IMG/VR virus record: IMGVR_UViG_2718218135_000004
DNA from: a virus
Lineage: Duplodnaviria > Heunggongvirae > Uroviricota > Caudoviricetes
Length of the DNA: 37,570 nt
Strand: one strand, 5' to 3'
In this document: positions 1,382 to 36,517 of the stretch, in pieces
Layout of the letters: every line of letters starts with the position of its first letter
Numbering within the stretch: the first letter of the stretch is position 1
Notes under the pieces: generated by a model
Seen by the model: the letters and a program-made list of their open reading frames with translations, nothing else
The model's database searches: none
Told to the model about the DNA's origin: nothing
Made by a program: the position numbers and the translations under genes

Positions 1382-3067
1382 GTGAATATAAACGTCGCCG
1401 AATTGTTAAATGGGAATTACATTCTGTTATTATTTGTGGTCCTCGCGCTTGGGCTATGTCTCGGAAAGTTACGACTTGGTTCGATCCAACTGGGTAATTC
1501 CATTGGCGTTTTAGTCGTATCGCTGTTATTAGGCCAACAACATTTCAGCATTAACACCGATGCGCTTAATCTTGGCTTTATGCTGTTTATTTTCTGCGTC
1601 GGGGTCGAAGCCGGACCGAACTTTTTTTCCATTTTTTTTCGCGATGGGAAAAATTACCTAATGTTAGCACTGGTGATGGTTGGCAGTGCGCTGGTGATCG
1701 CCTTAGGGTTAGGTAAGCTGTTTGGCTGGGATATTGGCCTGACGGCCGGTATGTTAGCAGGCTCTATGACGTCGACACCGGTTCTGGTCGGTGCTGGCGA
1801 TACACTGCGTCATTCCGGCATGGAAAGCAGGCAGCTCTCACTGGCACTGGATAATCTGAGCCTCGGGTATGCCTTAACCTATTTAATCGGTCTGGTGAGT
1901 TTGATTGTTGGTGCGCGTTACTTGCCGAAATTGCAGCATCAGGACTTACAGACCAGCGCCCAGCAAATCGCCCGCGAACGTGGCCTGGACACTGATGCCA
2001 ACCGTAAGGTTTATTTACCGGTGATCCGCGCCTATCGCGTCGGCCCGGAGCTGGTGGCCTGGACCGACGGCAAAAATCTGCGTGAACTGGGTATTTATCG
2101 ACAAACCGGCTGCTACATTGAACGTATTCGACGTAACGGGATTCTGGCAAATCCAGACGGTGATGCCGTGCTACAAATGGGCGATGAAATAGCGTTGGTA
2201 GGCTATCCCGACGCCCATGCCCGACTCGATCCCAGCTTCCGTAACGGTAAAGAAGTTTTCGATCGTGACCTTCTCGACATGCGTATCGTCACTGAAGAAG
2301 TGGTCGTTAAAAACCATAACGCTGTAGGTAAACGTCTCGCACAACTGAAGTTGACCGATCACGGTTGCTTCCTTAACCGCGTCATTCGTAGCCAGATTGA
2401 GATGCCGATAGATGACAACGTCGTGCTTAACAAAGGTGACGTTTTACAAGTCAGCGGTGATGCCCGTCGCGTAAAAACCATCGCCGATCGCATCGGCTTT
2501 ATCTCGATTCACAGCCAGGTCACTGACCTGCTGGCATTTTGCGCCTTCTTTGTTATTGGGCTGATGATCGGGATGATCACCTTCCAGTTCAGCACATTCA
2601 GTTTCGGCATGGGGAACGCTGCCGGGTTGTTATTCGCCGGAATTATGCTGGGCTTTATGCGTGCTAACCACCCGACCTTCGGTTACATTCCGCAAGGTGC
2701 ATTAAGCATGGTGAAAGAGTTCGGCTTGATGGTGTTTATGGCAGGCGTTGGTCTGAGCGCCGGTAGCGGTATTAATAACGGCCTGGGCGCGATTGGCGGT
2801 CAGATGTTGATTGCCGGATTAATTGTCAGTCTTGTGCCCGTGGTTATCTGTTTCTTGTTCGGTGCTTATGTATTGCGAATGAACCGCGCACTGTTGTTCG
2901 GCGCAATGATGGGCGCACGCACCTGCGCGCCGGCAATGGAGATCATCAGTGATACAGCTCGCAGTAACATCCCTGCGCTGGGCTATGCGGGCACCTACGC
3001 AATCGCCAACGTCCTGCTGACGCTGGCAGGGACAATCATCGTCATGGTATGGCCAGGATTAGGATAA
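1382..3067 (+). CDS. ybjL: putative AAE-family transporter YbjL (561 aa)
   Basis: 561-aa ORF from GTG 1382; N- and C-terminal TM blocks flanking a soluble central region; T7/T8 homopolymers at 1621-1645 read through in frame. Confidence 0.85.
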
Positions 3068-3179
3068 AACTGAAGTTGCCCTGAAAATGAAATTTTTTTG
3101 CACAACCGCAGAACTTTTCCGCAGGGCATCAGTCTTAATTAGTGCCACTGCTTTTCTTTGATGTCCCCATTTTGTGGAG

Positions 3180-3222
3180 CCCATCAACCCCGCCATTTCG
3201 GTTCAAGGTTGATGGGTTTTTT
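3180..3222 (+). terminator. rho-independent terminator-like hairpin in ybjL/prophage junction
   Basis: CCCATCAACC (3180-3189) ... GGTTGATGGG (3207-3216) followed by TTTTTT (3217-3222). Confidence 0.6.
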
Positions 3223-3302
3223 GTTGCCTGAAATTTATGCCTTTTAAAATCATGATGTTAGAAGCACTGTTTTTTAACGATGGCGACAAATTGGCGGCAG
3301 CG

Positions 3303-27603: not shown

Positions 27604-27873
27604 TTACCAATTTCTTTTTTCGGAGTTTAGCCAATCACCGCATGGATAATATCTTGACGCCCATTCACCTTGTAAACGAGCTACAAACAGAATATCGTTA
27701 CTATCGACCCTGGCTTGGAGTCCGTCACGCAGTTGAGTTGCGGTCAGCGTTGTATCTACTAACCAAAATGATTCAAGATATTTACAGTATGTAAATTGCT
27801 TTAGATAGTCAAAAACTTCATCGTAGTTTCTTCCCGGAGCCTTCAAGTCATAGGTTATACAATAAATAGCCAT
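27604..27873 (-). CDS. hypothetical 89-aa protein (hotspot cargo)
   Basis: ORF with GGAG RBS that overlaps the stop of the upstream Zn-ribbon gene; no family recognised from sequence. Confidence 0.55.
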   Translation of the reverse strand: MAIYCITYDLKAPGRNYDEVFDYLKQFTYCKYLESFWLVDTTLTATQLRDGLQARVDSNDILFVARLQGEWASRYYPCGDWLNSEKRNW

Positions 27874-27876
27874 TCT

Positions 27877-28059
27877 CTAAGCTCCGCATTTTTTATCATT
27901 TGGGGAACATCTTAACCTGCGACATTTGCGGCAATACGATTGAGGGATCAGCCGCTCTCCTTCCATAGTTCTAAAACCAAACACTTCTTCAATTTTGTTC
28001 AAATCACCACTTGCAATAACCCCACAGCAGGGGCAGACAGCCTCAATTTGAAATGCCAT
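27877..28059 (-). CDS. small Zn-ribbon protein (about 60 aa; CPCC...CRKC)
   Basis: Start chosen at ATG 28059 with GGAG RBS; ORF-track TTG start 28122 is less likely; Cys pattern C-x-C-C ... C-x-x-C. Confidence 0.5.
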   Translation of the reverse strand: MAFQIEAVCPCCGVIASGDLNKIEEVFGFRTMEGERLIPQSYCRKCRRLRCSPNDKKCGA

Positions 28060-28699
28060 GTCTATCTCCATTCCACATGTTGAATGTAGGGTAATACTTC
28101 CTTTCAAGCAAAAATGAGACAAGGATCTTGAAACCTAATTTAAACTTGCTTGCGCGCGCTCGTATCCCCGCCACGCCTGCCCGCTTTATGTAGTAGTTTT
28201 CATGCACCTGCATGACATGAGCAAAAGCCCGCCAGTTCTGGCATGTCTTAGCCAAACCGATCCTCAAACGATCATGCGAACTCATGCAGCATAGACATGC
28301 ATGACATGAAAATCGGTCAAACCTTGAAACCAGTCATAAATATGAGCCAGCTTAATACACACTAAATAGCTGCGTCTAATACTGCTACACCTGCCGTTTA
28401 CTGACATGTGGCATGTCGCGTAAGGACAACATACTGTAGGCCAGATACAGCAGGATCAGGCGAAGAAAACGGCCCCACGCCTTACCCAGCAAGGGCCAAG
28501 GGCTAACCGAAAGTGGAGCATTATTCCGCGCAGTTATTTAGTGTCAGCTCTTTTGAGCTAAAATCAAGTTTCAACATGAGGGTCTGTGCAGGCTTTCTCA
28601 TCCCGCTAATTTATACAGCACACCTATATGGCTATGAGTTTGTCATGCCCGCTAATCCTGTTAGGATTAGCCTTGTTTTTTTACGATTGGGATAGGGAT

Positions 28700-29506
28700 A
28701 TGAAGAAATTAACTGGCGTAATTGCTTTTGCTCTGCTGCTTACTGCTTGTGACAAACCGAAGATCGATGCATCAAGCGATCAGTCGATGAAAGAGTCCAT
28801 TCAAAAAGTAAGAGAGTCCTTACCTGCAGATAAAAAAGCTCAGTTTGATGATGCAGTTAAAGTCGTTGCCTTTAGCCAAATCAACATGAGAGAGCTAATG
28901 CAGGCTGGAACGTCTTCTGGGGACGTCTACGAAACAAAAATTAAGTCAGCGTTGGAAGGTAAAACTGGTGATGAGGTTATAAATTACGCACAAACTATTC
29001 GCCTTGAGCGTGAGAAGAGAGAGAAAGAACAGGCTCTGCAAGAAATAAAAGAACTGGAAGCCAAACAAACCTCTGCAACACAGGCTGCGGAAAAAATGAA
29101 AGCCTTCAAGGTCGAACGTTCCCGTTTTTATTTCCAGAAAGAGGATTACGGCAATGATCAGCCAATTCTGGATATTAGCGTTGAAAACGGAACAGACAAA
29201 GCGGTTGCCAGAGTATTCTTCAAAGGAGTTATTGCCAGCCCAGGAAGAAGCGTCCCTTGGTTCTCTGACGTCTTCAACTATAAAATTTCTGGAGGTCTGG
29301 AACCAGGTGAGAAAGCCAACTGGAAATTAGCCCCTAATAGATACTCTGATTGGGGAAAACTTAAAGTTCCGGCTGATGCTATATTTACCGTCACAGTCAT
29401 TGGCCTTGAAGACGCAGATGGGAAATCGATCTATGGTGACGCCGAGTTTTCAGAACGCGATGCTGACAGACTGAATCAACTTAGAGATAAGTACCTTTCT
29501 AAATAA
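28700..29506 (+). CDS. lipoprotein (268 aa) with coiled-coil segment
   Basis: MKKLTGVIAFALLLTAC signal peptide plus lipobox; ORF-track start 28628 is an upstream extension. Confidence 0.7.
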   Translation: MKKLTGVIAFALLLTACDKPKIDASSDQSMKESIQKVRESLPADKKAQFDDAVKVVAFSQINMRELMQAGTSSGDVYETKIKSALEGKTGDEVINYAQTIRLEREKREKEQALQEIKELEAKQTSATQAAEKMKAFKVERSRFYFQKEDYGNDQPILDISVENGTDKAVARVFFKGVIASPGRSVPWFSDVFNYKISGGLEPGEKANWKLAPNRYSDWGKLKVPADAIFTVTVIGLEDADGKSIYGDAEFSERDADRLNQLRDKYLSK

Positions 29507-29614
29507 TCAAAATTAAAGCTACTTCAGCATAGTCCCTGAGAATATATATCAGGGACTACCAAATCACGGCAGATACCCCTTAGTTAAATAATGCTAAACG
29601 CTTAGAAAGAGACC

Positions 29615-29914
29615 ATGAAACGTATAACTTTCTCCTTTACGTTAGTAGCAATCATCATAGCCTTAGCTGGATGTGCTTTGCCAGATAAAGACGGCGACTT
29701 CGGAGCTTATGTTCATGCCTGTCAGCAATATGCATACGGAAAATCCTATGCCTTTGAGAATAGAGACTTCGCGTATAAGGTCTGTAAGGACGCGGCGAAA
29801 CTGTGGAGTGAAGAAGTTCCTGGCTATATCATCAGGCAAATTCAACTACATCCTGAAATACCCAGCGAAGAAATTAAATATGCAGCCATGGCCGGCTCTT
29901 TGGGTAACAACTAA
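29615..29914 (+). CDS. small lipoprotein (99 aa)
   Basis: MKRITFSFTLVAIIIALAGC signal peptide plus lipobox. Confidence 0.7.
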   Translation: MKRITFSFTLVAIIIALAGCALPDKDGDFGAYVHACQQYAYGKSYAFENRDFAYKVCKDAAKLWSEEVPGYIIRQIQLHPEIPSEEIKYAAMAGSLGNN

Positions 29915-29927
29915 ATCAACTTATGAG

Positions 29928-29950
29928 AAAGGGGCTTAATGCCCCTTTTC
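29928..29950. terminator. rho-independent terminator between convergent lipoprotein gene and small ORF
   Basis: AAAGGGGC-TTAAT-GCCCCTTTT stem-loop. Confidence 0.65.
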
Positions 29951-29981
29951 GGTTCCCTTATCAAGTCCTAACGAAACAAGC

Positions 29982-30170
29982 TCAACTGATTACATCCATC
30001 GACCTACTGTATTCATGGCTTCGAATTTTCGCCATCAACTCATCAGTCAATTCAGAAACCCACTGCAGAGCTAGCCCCTTCTCTTCATCACTACACTCAC
30101 TAGCCGCTACAAGCTTAAGAAAAAAATCAATGCGCTGGAGCTTCAAAGACTCCAAAAAATAGTCCTGCAT
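29982..30170 (-). CDS. small helical protein (62 aa) downstream of tandem LexA boxes; candidate SOS-induced antirepressor (Tum-like position)
   Basis: ATG 30170 with AGGAGG RBS 4 nt upstream; ORF-track start 30272 would lie upstream of the LexA boxes. Confidence 0.55.
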   Translation of the reverse strand: MQDYFLESLKLQRIDFFLKLVAASECSDEEKGLALQWVSELTDELMAKIRSHEYSRSMDVIS

Positions 30171-30196
30171 CTTTCCTCCTATAACACCATACGCAA

Positions 30197-30231
30197 TACT
30201 GTACATATAAACACTGTTTATATTTACAGTA
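30197..30231 (-). promoter_or_regulatory. two overlapping LexA (SOS) boxes
   Basis: CTGT-ACATATAA-ACAC (30199-30214) and perfect CTGT-TTATATTT-ACAG (30214-30229), immediately upstream of the 62-aa ORF. Confidence 0.65.
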
Positions 30232-30323
30232 TATAATAATCTTACTGATGTAAAACGTTTTTTTACGTTCATCAGCCTGATATGCCTGGTATTATTAAGA
30301 GCACGAATTGTTAACCCGCGTGA

Positions 30324-32738
30324 TTAATACAGGTTCCGCCACTTATCATCTTCCTGCAAACGCTGGTTCCGATAGAAGATACGCAGGCCTGCTCCTGACG
30401 GAATACTGCCACCGCAAAGGAGCAAATCGACCTCTTTCTCGCTGCCATCAAATCCTCTGGACTTCAGTTCATAGACGAGCTGCTGACGCTGATACTCTGT
30501 AATTCGCTGTTTGTAGTCTTTACGCCGTTTCGGTTTAACCAGGCGCAATCTTGCTGCCAGTTCCCGGCGCTCTTTTTTGCTCATACTGTGCAGGTAATCG
30601 TGCAATTCCTTGTCATCCATGCAGGTAATGTCCGTTCTGGTATCCCCATCTGCTGATTCATCTTTCTCATGTTGGTTCAAATTTTCAGCAAGGGGACAGT
30701 TATTGCCACGAGTCCAAGGGGCGCAAGCGCCCTGGTCGGCTGCCGCCTCCTGAACGTCAACGGCCTTACGAACCATTTTCCACTTCACCGCATGAGTGCA
30801 GATCTTGCCCTCTGCAATGGGTGACCAGATGCCATAAATACGAATGCCGTGATCGCCATAGGCGGTCGGCTCTTCGTTAATTTCATAAGCAGTTCTGATG
30901 AGGTGATATTTGCGGGGAACCAGTACGCCGCCCTGCTTCATGATGTAAGTGGCAAAACAACCAGCATCAGCAGCAGCCAGGATTGCATCAAGGCGCGGGT
31001 TATCCAGTACCGGCGCACCTGCTTTTTTGTCCCCCTGTTGCCTTGCCGCCTGACCAGCCAGCAATCGCAGTTCACGGTAAGCCTGACGCCCCGGAATGCC
31101 AAAGAAGCGGAATTGCTGAACACGATGCAAAGACGCCCAGGCATTCACGTATTCAGCGTTATCACGCAGAGATTTACCCGTTTCCTTGCTGATCTCGCCA
31201 GCCAGACCACGCCCGTCAATGTTCTTGCTGATATATTTCGCGATGTAGCTTGTCGGCGTTCCTTTGCGCGGGTTAATCAACTCAGACTTAAATCGTGGTC
31301 CCGTGTTATTCCCCAGCTCCTCGCGGTCTTCACGAATGGCAAACTTACGCAATAAAGCAGTAATGGCGCGGCGATCTTTTTTGCGCATAAAACACAACAG
31401 GTGCCAGTGAACTGTACCGTCATGATGCGGCTCAGCCACCCGCACGCCATACCAGCGCAATCCGGCTTTGTGCATCGCCTTACGAAATGCAGCAAACATG
31501 CCGACCAGATAATCACTGCTTTGTCTTACCGTCGCATTTGTCCAGGTCGGGTTGGGCCTGCCGTTATTTAGCGTGGAATGGAAACGTGACGGACAGGTGA
31601 TGGTGTAGAAAACGGCGCAGTCACCGCGCATTTCCGCGATAAGCTCCAGGCCTTTAACACAGGCCATCATCTCATTGCGGCGATGCGCAGGGTTGCTGCT
31701 GCTGGCGTTTACCACATCCTCCATGTCCAGCGTGTCGCCGTCTTCGTTCACCAGTTCATGAGAACGAAAAAACTCCAGCGACTTACGGCGCTGCTCACGT
31801 TTATGCATCACGGCTTCATAGCTGACATAAGGAGATGCTTTTTTGCTAACCAGGCAGACAGCGCGCAACTGCTCTTCCCGCCATTCGCAACGCATCTTCC
31901 ATAATTTCCGATACCACCAGTCGGCGCACAACATACGCGCCAGCGAACCCGGAATGAGTTCATAGGGCACGGGTTTACGGCGGTTTCTTTTCCGGCGGAG
32001 TTGCTCAAACGCAGGAGGAATGACATCCAGACGCAGGGTTTCCGCCGCCACCCTTTCCCATGTCTTGCGGATTTCTTCTGGCTTAACGTCATCGGTGGCA
32101 TACAAATCGCCACAAGCTGCATCAAGACACATGCTCATATGCGCAGCAACAAGGGTGGACAGGCGTTTCACCTGATCCTGACTCATTTCAGGCAGGATCA
32201 GCAGGCCGTCCAGCCCTTCATGGCTTGCCATAAAGCGAAAAGAAGTGGATAGCTGACAGTCGCGTACATGCTCCAGTCGTTCCAGACATGGCTTAATCGT
32301 CTCACGCAAATAGCGGGAATAAGCCTTTGGCCTGCCCAGGCTGCTGAAGTATTCGATACGTTGCATCAGCGGTTTGCTGATATGGGAAGGCTGGGCATTG
32401 ACGTCCGCCAGAATGACCATATCTGGATTAAAACGCTGCTGCTCATGCGCCAGCTTTGCCCGGCTAATGAGCTTATCCTGCTCCATTTCGCGTTGGACAG
32501 GATCACGGGATTCATTAAAGAAATAACGCTCCCAGACCTGATCACTTAGTGCCTCGCGACGCAGTTGTTCCTGCTCATTATCGACAGCGTACAGAGTGAT
32601 CAGGTTTGAAAGCGCAGAAACCGGCGCAACTTCCGCCAGGTCCAGATAAGGGTTAATGGCCTTTTTCGGGCTGTTCCATGAGAATGCTGCGGCGACCTCG
32701 TTAAAGCCGCTGCAGTTGTTCATATCATCATGGCTCAT
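30324..32738 (-). CDS. A: replication initiation protein gpA-like (rolling-circle nickase)
   Basis: 804-aa ORF at the gpA position. Confidence 0.85.
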
Positions 32739-33592
32739 GCACGCACTCCGTACATGGCAGAACTATCCACGCCACGCGAAGGATCAAATCCCACCCAGCA
32801 GCGCGCCCCGGAAACAGCAATGATTTCTGTTGCAGATTTACTCTCGCCAGCCGACACGCCGATGCTGCGTTTTGCCTTGATGTAGTGGTGAGTGAAATTG
32901 CGATACAGCGAACGAATCAGGGATGTGTCACTGTTAGAAACAATGACCGGATGACCTTCAGATGATCGATGTTCAAGAACAGATGCCAGGTGATACTGGT
33001 CATCTTCAGTGAAGCCATCAGTGTGATAGCCGGAAAACGTACCGTCATAAGGCGGATCGCAATACACCACATCCCCCACCTTCAACATCGCCAGCGTTTC
33101 ATCAAAGCTGGCGCAGATAAACGTTGCCCGCTGGGCTTTCTCTGCAAATGCGCGAATTTCTTTTTCAGGGAAATACGGATTTTTATAATTACCGTAGGGA
33201 ATGTTGAAATACCCGCTCTTGTTATAGCGACATAACCCACGGTAACCATGACGATTGAGATACAGAAAATATACCGCTTTCATGAAATCAGTAATTTCAG
33301 TGGAGTAATTAAACTCCTGCCTGATGTTGTAATAAGTCACCTCCCTGTTTGCTTCCTCAAATAAAGCTCTGGCACGAGATATAAACGCCTCACAATCAGC
33401 AGCAACCTTTTTATAGAGGTTGATTAAATCAGGATTAATATCCGCAACAAGATAGCTGGGGTAATCCGTCTCCATCATCACTGCACAGGAACCCGCGAAA
33501 GGTTCAACCAGTCGCGGGCCAGCAGGAAGGTGTTTTTTCAGTTCGGACATAATGGCGGTTTTATTTCCCGCCCATTTCAGGATGGTGCTCAT
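32735..33592 (-). CDS. dam: DNA adenine methyltransferase (Dam-like, D12 class)
   Basis: SAM-binding FAGSCAV motif and catalytic DPPY motif; start at [11 protein letters not shown] (33592); ATGA overlaps with the neighbouring genes. Confidence 0.85.
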
Positions 33593-33816
33593 ACAGCACC
33601 TCCGTTGTAATGTTTGCCTTTCAGCTCTGCAATTTCCTGGCAGGTAATGCAAAGCTGCACACCCGGAATGGCACGGCGGCGTGCTGGCGGAATTGGCGCT
33701 TCACACTCAATGCAAAGCACGCGAGACACGCCCGGTGTTTTGGCACGGGCAGCACGGATATGGCGCTGGCGTTCTTCTTCAACGCGCTGCTGTACGAGAT
33801 CCATTGCATCAGCCAT
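33589..33816 (-). CDS. TraR/DksA-family C4 zinc-finger protein
   Basis: CIECEAPIP...CITCQ C4 pattern in a 75-aa ORF. Confidence 0.7.
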   Translation of the reverse strand: MADAMDLVQQRVEEERQRHIRAARAKTPGVSRVLCIECEAPIPPARRRAIPGVQLCITCQEIAELKGKHYNGGAV

Positions 33817-34629: not shown

Positions 34630-35148
34630 TCACAGCAAACCGAATGAAGCACCGAGGCCAGTCACGGTATCAACTGCACTCGCCATCGCAGGATTAGCCT
34701 GTAAACGGGCCTGCAATGAAACAGCAGCCAGCGCCATCAGTCGTGTTACAGAGTTAATGCTGCTGATAGCATCACGACGACCGGCACTAGTTTTTACATC
34801 ACCAGATACCGCACCTGCTGCAACACGTCCGATCTCTGCAGTTGCGCTCATGACGTAATGCGGCAGTTTCTCTTTTGCAACCTCATTAATCGGTACACAT
34901 GGCAGGCAGTGAATCTGTGCCAGAAAACCATCTACCAGCGTTGAATCTTCAGTCAGATCGGTAAGCAGCCAGATTTCTGGTGCGGTTAATAAATGAGGTT
35001 GAGATGGGTTCAGCTTGTTCCGCAGAATCTGCACATTCATGCCAGCACGTTCTGCCAGTTGCACCAGATTGTGGCGCAGTGCGAATGCACGACAGGCTTC
35101 ATCAAAATGTGGATGTTTGGAAACTTGGTAATCAAACATGGTTTTCAA
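34630..35148 (-). CDS. cII: CII-like transcriptional activator (186 CII family)
   Basis: Recalled near-identity to phage 186 CII ([34 protein letters not shown]); the true start may be the internal Met at MFDYQ. Confidence 0.85.
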
Positions 35149-35203: not shown

Positions 35204-35407
35204 TTAAGCAGACAAAGCATCAACAGTCAGAGCAGCCAGGTTAATCATTACCTTTTCACGTTTTTTGTCTTTACGAAGACGATGACGAGGTAGTCGGCCA
35301 TCAGCCAACATGTCGTTAATCGTATCAATAGAAAGGCCTGTCAGTTCGCTATAACGTTCGATTGTGACATGTGGTGTATTCAGAGTAATTGAAATGTTAG
35401 GTGTCAT
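35204..35407 (-). CDS. apl: Apl/Cox-like excisionase and repressor-region regulator
   Basis: 67-aa HTH protein [19 protein letters not shown].., first gene of the lytic transcript, divergent from cI. Confidence 0.75.
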
Positions 35408-35552: not shown

Positions 35553-36122
35553 GTGGATTTCAATAGCGGCGGTAAGAAAGCCATAGAACGTTTAGTTGAA
35601 GCATATGGGTTCGGTACCCGTCAGGCTCTCTGTGATCATTTAGGTGTTTCTAAGAGCACCATGGCAACGCGCTATATGCGTGATATTTTTCCAGCAGATT
35701 GGGTAATCCAGTGCGCCCTTGAAACGGGCACCTCGCTTAATTGGCTAACAACAGGGCATGGTTCAAAGCAAGCATCAGCAAATACAAATACTATAGAAGT
35801 AGAAAAATATTTATTGTCTGATGGAGCATTGCAGAAAGACGGTTTTTATATTTTTGATAAGGGATTTCTACCCTCTACGTTTAAAAAACCTTTTGTCATC
35901 ACAGATAACAATTCTGAATTTATTTGTGATAAAGAATTTGATGATATACGTGATGGTAAATGGGTAATAAGTATTGATGGCGAAATAACGATCCGTGACA
36001 TTACTCGTTTACCCGGTGGAAGAATCTTCGTCGAGGGTGGAAACAGAGCCTTCGAATGCAAGATAGAAGACATTGAAATAATTGGTAAAATTATAAGTTT
36101 AACAGTCAAGTATGTTAAATAG
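35553..36122 (+). CDS. cI: CI-like immunity repressor (186 CI family)
   Basis: GTG 35553 preceded by GGAGGA RBS; ERLVEAYGFG ... CALETGTSLNWLTTG recalled from 186 CI; ORF-track start 35466 is an extension. Confidence 0.8.
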   Translation: MDFNSGGKKAIERLVEAYGFGTRQALCDHLGVSKSTMATRYMRDIFPADWVIQCALETGTSLNWLTTGHGSKQASANTNTIEVEKYLLSDGALQKDGFYIFDKGFLPSTFKKPFVITDNNSEFICDKEFDDIRDGKWVISIDGEITIRDITRLPGGRIFVEGGNRAFECKIEDIEIIGKIISLTVKYVK

Positions 36123-36137
36123 TACCGGGAGGAAACT

Positions 36138-36329
36138 ATGCTTGGTAAGGTATTTTTTGTGGTTTTGTCATGTTCTTTGTTATTAAACCCACTAACTACC
36201 TATGCTAGAAATTATCCCTGCTCAGGGAAAAAGGGAGGTGTTTCTCACTGTACCTCAGATGGCAAATTCGTTTGCAATGATGGAACTATTAGTAAATCCA
36301 AAAAAATCTGTACTAAAAACTCACGATAA
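36138..36329 (+). CDS. small secreted Cys-rich protein (63 aa), moron candidate between cI and int
   Basis: Signal peptide [23 protein letters not shown]; mature 40 aa with 4 Cys and many Lys. Confidence 0.5.
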
Positions 36330-36517
36330 CTTTTGCTTTTATATCTGCGTCTAAAATAAAAATGAGCCGCAGGTTAACCGCAAAAGTTACATGCTCACAT
36401 AGCAAAAAGAATAGCCAACTTCATTATGGCTTCAGTGAGATGTATGGTCGTAGGATTTCATACATTGACACTGGTTATACATACAGTAAAAATGCTCTCT
36501 ACTGGAGGGCATTTTTT

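Follow-up and report, generated by a model that had tools for sequence, protein, structure and literature searches.

Two overlapping LexA boxes ahead of a tum-type antirepressor homolog in a Fels-2/DuoHS-type P2-like prophage of Escherichia coli

The window, by which we mean the whole 37,570-nt stretch of DNA analysed here, is a segment of an E. coli chromosome with a P2-like prophage of the Fels-2/DuoHS type (Peduoviridae) that looks complete. The host gene ybjL (1382-3067) lies on its left side and is followed, before the ogr end of the prophage is reached, by the gene for the RybB small RNA (3147-3225, plus strand; Rfam RF00110, 105 bits). The rybB region may be the attachment site of the prophage, as for DuoHS in E. 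coli HS, which occupies the same chromosomal site between rcdA and rybB/ybjL. The early operon is found on the minus strand and includes an apl-like ORF (35407..35204), a cII-like ORF (35148..34630) and dam (33652..32735); gene A (30324..32738, minus strand) encodes an 804-aa endonuclease of the P2/186 type, annotated as a replication endonuclease in the relatives. Both cI and int are on the plus strand, with int at the right end of the window. The cI gene (35553..36122) would encode an immunity repressor of 189 aa from a GTG at 35553, and this CI is 87% identical to that of DuoHS and 33% identical to that of phage 186. Together with the Apl-like and CII-like ORFs, this agrees with the 186-like cI/apl/cII switch that an earlier note on this DNA had described.

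Directly downstream of gene A, and on the same (minus) strand, lies a 62-aa ORF (29982..30170; ATG at 30170, stop codon at 29984-29982) that we identify as a homolog of the tum antirepressor gene, of the tumA type. It is preceded by the ribosome-binding site AGGAGG (30175..30180, minus strand), 4 nt before the ATG and kept as (A/G)GGAGG in all relatives, and this site, the promoter and the LexA boxes described below all fall inside the 153-nt gap that follows gene A. The profile of PHROG 698, 63 positions long, covers residues 1-62 of the product from end to end (E 1e-37), so that the short ORF with a strong ribosome-binding site named in the earlier note is borne out as a gene. Its product is identical at 61 of 62 residues to ECHS_RS04495 (the “tum” of DuoHS) and 95% identical to Fels-2 STM2728, and tblastn found it in 66 phage records, among them Fels-2, SopEPhi, RE2010, many Klebsiella prophages and a Yersinia phage, at identities of 84-98%; the ESSI-2-type phages follow at 44-49%.

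Phage 186 Tum and PSP3 TumA are more distant. Pairwise BLASTP of the 62-aa protein against either gave no alignment, and a tblastn search of 50,697 phage records returned neither 186 nor PSP3, even with E values up to 10 allowed, so that the homology to these proteins is seen at the profile level only. At that level, the 62-aa protein matches PHROG 8554 (1.6e-8) and PHROG 1993 (2e-3) in addition to PHROG 698, and 8554 and 1993 are the families that PSP3 TumA and the N-terminal half of 186 Tum match best. Reciprocally, the N-terminal 70 residues of 186 Tum match PHROG 1993 (1.5e-23), 8554 (3e-12) and 698 (6e-6). When an alignment of the 698 type was compared by hhalign with the N-terminal halves of the 186, PSP3 and YenM Tum proteins, residues 5-43 aligned with residues 5-43 at 94.6% probability (E 6.4e-8), the identity to the 186 Tum core being about 20%. 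Judged by these profiles, the 62-aa protein is a homolog of PSP3 TumA and of the N-terminal half of 186 Tum, the antirepressor half. No matches to it were obtained in Pfam, NCBIfam, PADLOC or PDB sequence searches. A single-sequence AlphaFold2 model predicts a helical hairpin with helices at residues 2-23 and 28-61 (mean pLDDT 88.5).

A longer, 96-aa reading of the ORF from an ATG at 30272 was considered and rejected: the PHROG profile spans only residues 35-96 of this version, and the additional codons, which run across promoter and operator, lack conservation. Upstream of the tum ATG, DuoHS is without an in-frame start and SopEPhi is open for just 17 codons. With regard to existing annotation, the gene is called “hypothetical protein” by PGAP and in most phage records, PHROG 698 itself carries the label “unknown function”, and in two Klebsiella phage records the product is labelled “levan regulatory domain protein”. 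Two records give an ORF of about 97 aa that starts upstream of its own promoter, and some records have no annotation at all.

The gap between gene A and tum contains two overlapping LexA boxes, as the earlier note had proposed. CTGTTTATATTTACAG at 30214-30229 is the sole perfect CTGT-N8-ACAG in the 37.6-kb window, where 0.4 would be expected by chance, and forms the core of box 1 (30212..30231; minus strand TACTGTAAATATAAACAGTG), the promoter-proximal box, which overlaps the -10 element. CTGTACATATAAACAC at 30199-30214, a one-mismatch CTGT-N8-ACAC site whose last base is common to the core of box 1, forms the core of box 2 (30197..30216; minus strand CAGTGTTTATATGTACAGTA), which lies downstream, spans the predicted start of the transcribed region and has its centre 15 nt from that of box 1. 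With 13 one-mismatch sites found against 12.9 expected, the window shows no excess of them, and we therefore scored sites quantitatively with a symmetric 20-nt LexA matrix built from 20 E. coli chromosomal sites. For the same reason, box 2 is significant solely by how it scores on the matrix and where it lies. The top site in the window is box 1, with 23.6 bits; box 2 has 16.7 bits, and both fall within the range of the training sites (13.0 to 27.1 bits). With these two and a third box at 36469-36488 set aside, the next-best site in the window reaches 9.5 bits, and the mean maximum in 200 shuffles was 11.9 bits. A site of at least 16.7 bits exactly 15 nt to either side of box 1 would arise by chance with a probability of about 2e-6, or about 3e-6 per position when the composition of the intergenic region is used.

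The comparison with related phages points in the same direction. Box 1 is identical in the window, DuoHS and Fels-2 and was found in all PHROG 698-type tum loci examined, and the 15-nt offset between the boxes is kept in Fels-2, DuoHS, SopEPhi, MLG42, KPC3phi13.6 and 500465-1; box 2 of DuoHS differs from that of the window at 3 positions. A single box is present in 186, PSP3, ESSI-2, ev015 and a Yersinia enterocolitica phage, and the double box is thus specific to the PHROG 698 lineage. By sequence, then, 30197-30231 is confirmed as a pair of E. coli-type LexA (SOS) boxes, and we infer that LexA occupies both of them and binds them co-operatively.

Which transcript would these boxes control? 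On the minus strand, a putative sigma-70 promoter combines the -35 hexamer TTTACA (30249..30254; 5/6 match to the consensus) with a -10 region, TATACTGT (30226..30233), that lies inside or adjacent to box 1. The -10 element can be read as TACTGT (30231-30226) with a 17-nt spacer or as TATACT with a 15-nt spacer. As TACTGT it is weak (3/6), and a consensus promoter scan did not call this promoter. TTTACA-N17-TACTGT is kept in 7 independent relatives though the 17-nt spacer diverges. The longer pattern TTTACA-N17-TACTGT-N8-ACAGTG-N9-ACAG is exact in all the PHROG 698-type loci fetched, namely Fels-2, DuoHS, SopEPhi, MLG42, KPC3phi13.6, 500465-1 and one phage-like plasmid, and among these loci spacer and leader diverge. 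An exact pattern amid diverged spacer and leader is a good phylogenetic footprint for the predicted promoter and boxes, and transcription would presumably start within box 1.

Alternatively, the LexA boxes might control, instead or as well, a promoter on the plus strand (TAAACA-18-TATAAT, 30208-30237) whose SOS-induced transcript would run antisense to the 3' end of gene A. This promoter is the sole call of the consensus scan in the region, matches at 10 of 12 positions and lies within and next to the boxes. The number of promoter-like matches, 1 found against 1.7 expected by chance, is nevertheless unremarkable; the TATAAT is lost in relatives in which the spacer has diverged (TATAGC in MLG42), whereas the minus-strand -35/-10 pair is invariant; and the plus strand offers no conserved ORF and no Rfam family. 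We rejected the candidate as not conserved and give this alternative next to no credence. The minus-strand promoter, and hence tum, is in our reading the target of the boxes. We also note an imperfect palindrome, CTGATGAACGTAAAAAAACGTTTTACATCAG (30246-30276, minus strand), that follows gene A and takes in the tum promoter's -35 hexamer; DuoHS keeps only part of the palindrome, and SopEPhi and MLG42 lack it.

The geometry of the tum operator is, by alignment, that of the double overlapping SOS operators of colicin genes. The operators of ColE1 cea and of a colicin E3-like gene likewise consist of two 16-nt cores that share one base at a 15-nt offset, and the tum operator aligns column for column with that of ColE1 cea. 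A 40-nt query containing the tum operator matched 1187 plasmid records, and the matches that were examined lie upstream of ColE1 cea and of a colicin E3-like gene, with about 87-92% identity over 39 nt. Common descent of the tum and colicin operators is not claimed, as an identity of about 90% is roughly what the LexA consensus itself imposes. There is also a difference in placement, in that the colicin genes have a separate -10 element that immediately precedes the boxes, and box 1 of the window overlaps the -10. According to Lu & Chak 1996, as reported in PMC2994835, overlapping colicin SOS boxes bind two LexA dimers and thereby give very tight repression. Co-operative occupancy and late induction are also known for colicins. 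By analogy, tight repression by two dimers may operate at tum as well.

The position of the gene is that of tum in phage 186, as the earlier note had recognised. In the 186 annotation (NC_001317) gene A is followed by p95 with a putative LexA site and then by tum (146 aa), an order equal to that of the window. The p95 promoter is annotated as TTCACA-18-TACTGT, and its -10, TACTGT, lies in the LexA box, so that the two phages share gene order, a LexA box over a TACTGT -10 and a cI/apl/cII-type switch, and the N-terminal 45 or so residues of 186 Tum are the part homologous to the 62-aa protein. The 186 locus differs in that it has a single LexA box (27.8 bits), in that its Tum, with internal starts, carries a fused DinI-like C-terminal half, and in that the operon runs on into orf97. 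The earlier note had also remarked that the ORF is shorter than Tum; this is correct, and follows from the fact that 186 Tum fuses the antirepressor and DinI-like halves. Bunny 2002, in the account given in PMC3121763, describes 186 Tum as resembling an antirepressor fused to DinI and tum as split in Fels-2 and PSP3.

Fels-2 and PSP3 carry the two halves as separate genes. In PSP3, gene A is followed by tumA (annotated “similar to 5' end 186 tum; UV induction of prophage”) and tumB; as in the window, a short antirepressor gene stands after gene A behind a LexA box, here a single one, and TumA is a profile-level homolog. In Fels-2, the gene after STM2728 (STM2726.1) encodes a “DinI family protein” that resembles PSP3 TumB, and the short antirepressor gene after gene A has the same double LexA box as the window; STM2726-STM2727-STM2728 are among the differentially expressed operons of mutagen (MX)-treated Salmonella. 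Both Fels-2 and PSP3 differ from the window in keeping the DinI-like second gene, and the C-terminal domain of Fels-2 CI is only 26% identical to that of the window. A more remote parallel is provided by GfoA/GftA of the Gifsy phages and AntC of N15, which are also small, LexA-repressed antirepressors directed against a non-cleavable repressor (PMC3121763). They are unrelated proteins in another gene order, and in the Gifsy operons dinI comes first (PMC3121763).

Neither a full-length 186-type Tum nor a tumA-tumB pair is present here, with no DinI-like domain fused to the 62-aa protein or encoded downstream of it. In tblastn searches of the whole window no DinI-like or orf97-like coding sequence was found. 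A DinI-like (tumB) gene follows tum in Fels-2, DuoHS, SopEPhi and MLG42, and DNA homology between the window and its relatives ends right after the tum stop codon. What follows tum instead is a GC-rich hairpin, AAAGGGGC-TTAAT-GCCCCTTT (29928..29949), and then two convergent lipoprotein genes on the plus strand, one encoding a 99-aa PHROG 7666 lipoprotein (29615-29914) and the other a DUF6694 lipoprotein (28628-29506). The hairpin lies between the convergent tum and lipoprotein genes, folds at -20.8 kcal/mol, moderately better than shuffled sequence (z -1.75), and is probably a terminator shared by the two sides, with the better T-run on the plus strand; a consensus terminator scan did not call it and found none. 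Since no DinI-like or orf97-like sequence follows and the hairpin and convergent genes do, tum is predicted to be monocistronic in the window, with the DinI-like gene lost. The cargo genes (27604-29981) form a variable region between the portal gene and tum that also encodes, on the minus strand, an 89-aa protein with weak Cas2-like matches (27604-27873; E 5e-4) and an 81-aa Cys-rich protein (27877-28122).

The module has an experimentally studied counterpart. In the Phollow study (PMC12055606), deletion of tum, or lexA(Ind-), in E. coli HS abolished mitomycin C-induced lysis and virion foci, and an SOS reporter still fired in the DuoHS tum mutant. The gene removed there as tum, by an in-frame deletion, was ECHS_RS04495, the 62-aa gene that follows gene A in E. 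coli HS. DuoHS has the same promoter, double LexA box and tum after gene A; it differs from the window in having a DinI-like gene 10 nt downstream of tum, where the window has none and carries the convergent lipoprotein cargo instead. The locus is thus an already known module, with a near-identical tum tested experimentally by others. The suggestion of the earlier note that the prophage is SOS-inducible through a small antirepressor gains support both from the Tum homology and from the DuoHS tum and lexA(Ind-) results, although the latter cannot be transferred to the window with complete certainty, as it lacks the DinI-like partner gene. The first reading of the locus, boxes and antirepressor, is correct but ordinary; it had overlooked the colicin-type arrangement of the double box, the absence of the DinI-like partner and the fact that the module was already characterised.

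The lost partner raises the question of whether the module is sufficient. It might be that without TumB (DinI-like) the prophage is poorly or not at all inducible by SOS and that tum here is the remnant of a broken operon. The absence of any DinI-like or orf97-like sequence and the end of homology at the tum stop codon would fit this, and the tum mutant of DuoHS retained the dinI-like gene downstream in its operon. On the other hand, a personal communication mentioned in PMC3121763 assigns the antirepressor activity of PSP3 to the upstream gene alone, and the DinI-like products of 186 are annotated as modulators and not as the antirepressor. The ESSI-2-type phages likewise have tum without dinI; moreover, promoter, ribosome-binding site and ORF are intact in the window, and the DinI-less arrangement recurs in 22 E. 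coli records that are at least 99% identical, with strains such as HH194M reaching 99.9% across tum and the cargo. A broken, non-functional operon is on this balance improbable.

We consider it highly probable that the locus serves a Fels-2/DuoHS-type P2-like prophage of E. coli, one with a 186-type switch, as its module for SOS induction. In the lysogen, dimers of host LexA would sit on the two overlapping SOS boxes, box 1 covering the -10 and the transcription start of the minus-strand promoter (TTTACA-17-TACTGT) and box 2 covering the first 25 or so nucleotides of the transcript, and both together would silence the monocistronic 62-aa gene. Upon DNA damage, active RecA would bring about the self-cleavage of LexA, the promoter would fire and the helical-hairpin Tum (TumA type) would accumulate. 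Tum would then bind the prophage CI stoichiometrically and take it off its operators, the early lytic promoter would be derepressed, and Apl and the replication genes, including that of gene A, would be expressed.

The last part of this scheme leans on phage 186. According to Shearwin 1998, as related in PMC3121763 and PMC7708051, 186 Tum binds CI and stops its binding to the operator, and PMC7708051 describes 186 Tum as sequestering CI. Among Tum proteins, CI binding has been shown biochemically for that of 186 only, and the window protein is of the PHROG 698 type; by analogy it would bind CI, the presumed target. Alternatively, the 62-aa protein might induce by a mechanism other than CI sequestration, acting on RecA, LexA or the stability of CI. 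An identity of only about 20% to the 186 Tum core would leave room for such a mechanism. Nevertheless, the protein is homologous to the antirepressor half of Tum and not to the DinI-like half, the normal SOS reporter in the DuoHS tum deletion implies that the gene acts downstream of LexA (PMC12055606), and the type of Tum co-varies with the N-terminal domain of CI. We regard a different mode of action as very improbable and CI sequestration as the working assumption.

This co-variation deserves further comment. The window CI is a mosaic, with an N-terminal HTH domain 67-70% identical to that of Fels-2-type CI and a C-terminal domain that is only 24-31% identical, while the Tum proteins of these phages are 84-95% identical. 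Across six phages with the window type of Tum (84-98% identity), the N-terminal HTH domain of CI is 67-83% identical to that of the window, while the C-terminal domain is 24-31% identical in Fels-2, SopEPhi, MLG42 and KPC3phi13.6, no closer than that of 186. In this small sample of phages that are not phylogenetically independent, the Tum type tracks the CI N-terminal domain. This hints that Tum may recognise the N-terminal DNA-binding domain of CI, and would fit an antirepressor that blocks DNA binding.

The main value of these observations lies in annotation, in that a gene mostly labelled hypothetical or of unknown function would be the induction trigger of a prophage family. Of 5426 complete E. 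coli genomes, about 1260 contain a match to the region of the tum/gene-A junction, mostly at 90-95% identity, and the prophage family is also common in Klebsiella and Salmonella. SOS inducibility via tum matters for predicting the release of phages triggered by antibiotics.

A third LexA box, CACTGGTTATACATACAGTA (36469-36488; 23.3 bits), was found at the other end of the prophage. It fills the 17-nt spacer of a promoter-like TTGACA-17-AAAAAT (36466-36494, plus strand) that lies about 30 nt before the likely ATG of int (int start 36519, ribosome-binding site GGAGGG), which suggests an SOS-controlled int promoter. The int-proximal LexA/promoter element is also present in DuoHS, and the arms of the box are kept in two diverged E. 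coli prophages (L725 and MS6192) in which the upstream genes are unrelated, one of the two having a perfect CTGT-N8-ACAG at this site. Fels-2, SopEPhi and 186, in which cI lies directly next to int, lack the box. We searched the literature on P2-like phages for an int promoter under LexA control and obtained nothing relevant. Of 5426 E. coli genomes, about 593 have the region upstream of int.

Taken together, these features lead us to speculate, tentatively and as something we hold rather less likely than its opposite, that the DuoHS-type sub-lineage is doubly wired to LexA, through a co-operative double operator at tum and a LexA-gated int promoter (36466-36494), with a Tum that recognises the N-terminal domain of CI. 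If so, the DinI-less, double-box tum switch would be tighter and have a higher threshold than the single box of 186, antirepression and the supply of the excision enzyme would be triggered in parallel, and recognition of the CI N-terminal domain would explain how one type of Tum serves repressors with unrelated C-terminal domains. We found no earlier description of three minor points, namely the LexA box upstream of int, the missing DinI-like gene and the double operator of the colicin type. The operator, the variant without DinI and an int promoter that may be under LexA control might refine the picture derived from 186 and would not overturn it.

A minor observation concerns the interval between cI and int, which holds a 63-aa ORF (36138-36329, plus strand) with a signal-peptide-like N-terminus and several Cys residues. 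It is possibly a moron that separates int from the cI transcript, and DuoHS likewise has a small gene between cI and int.
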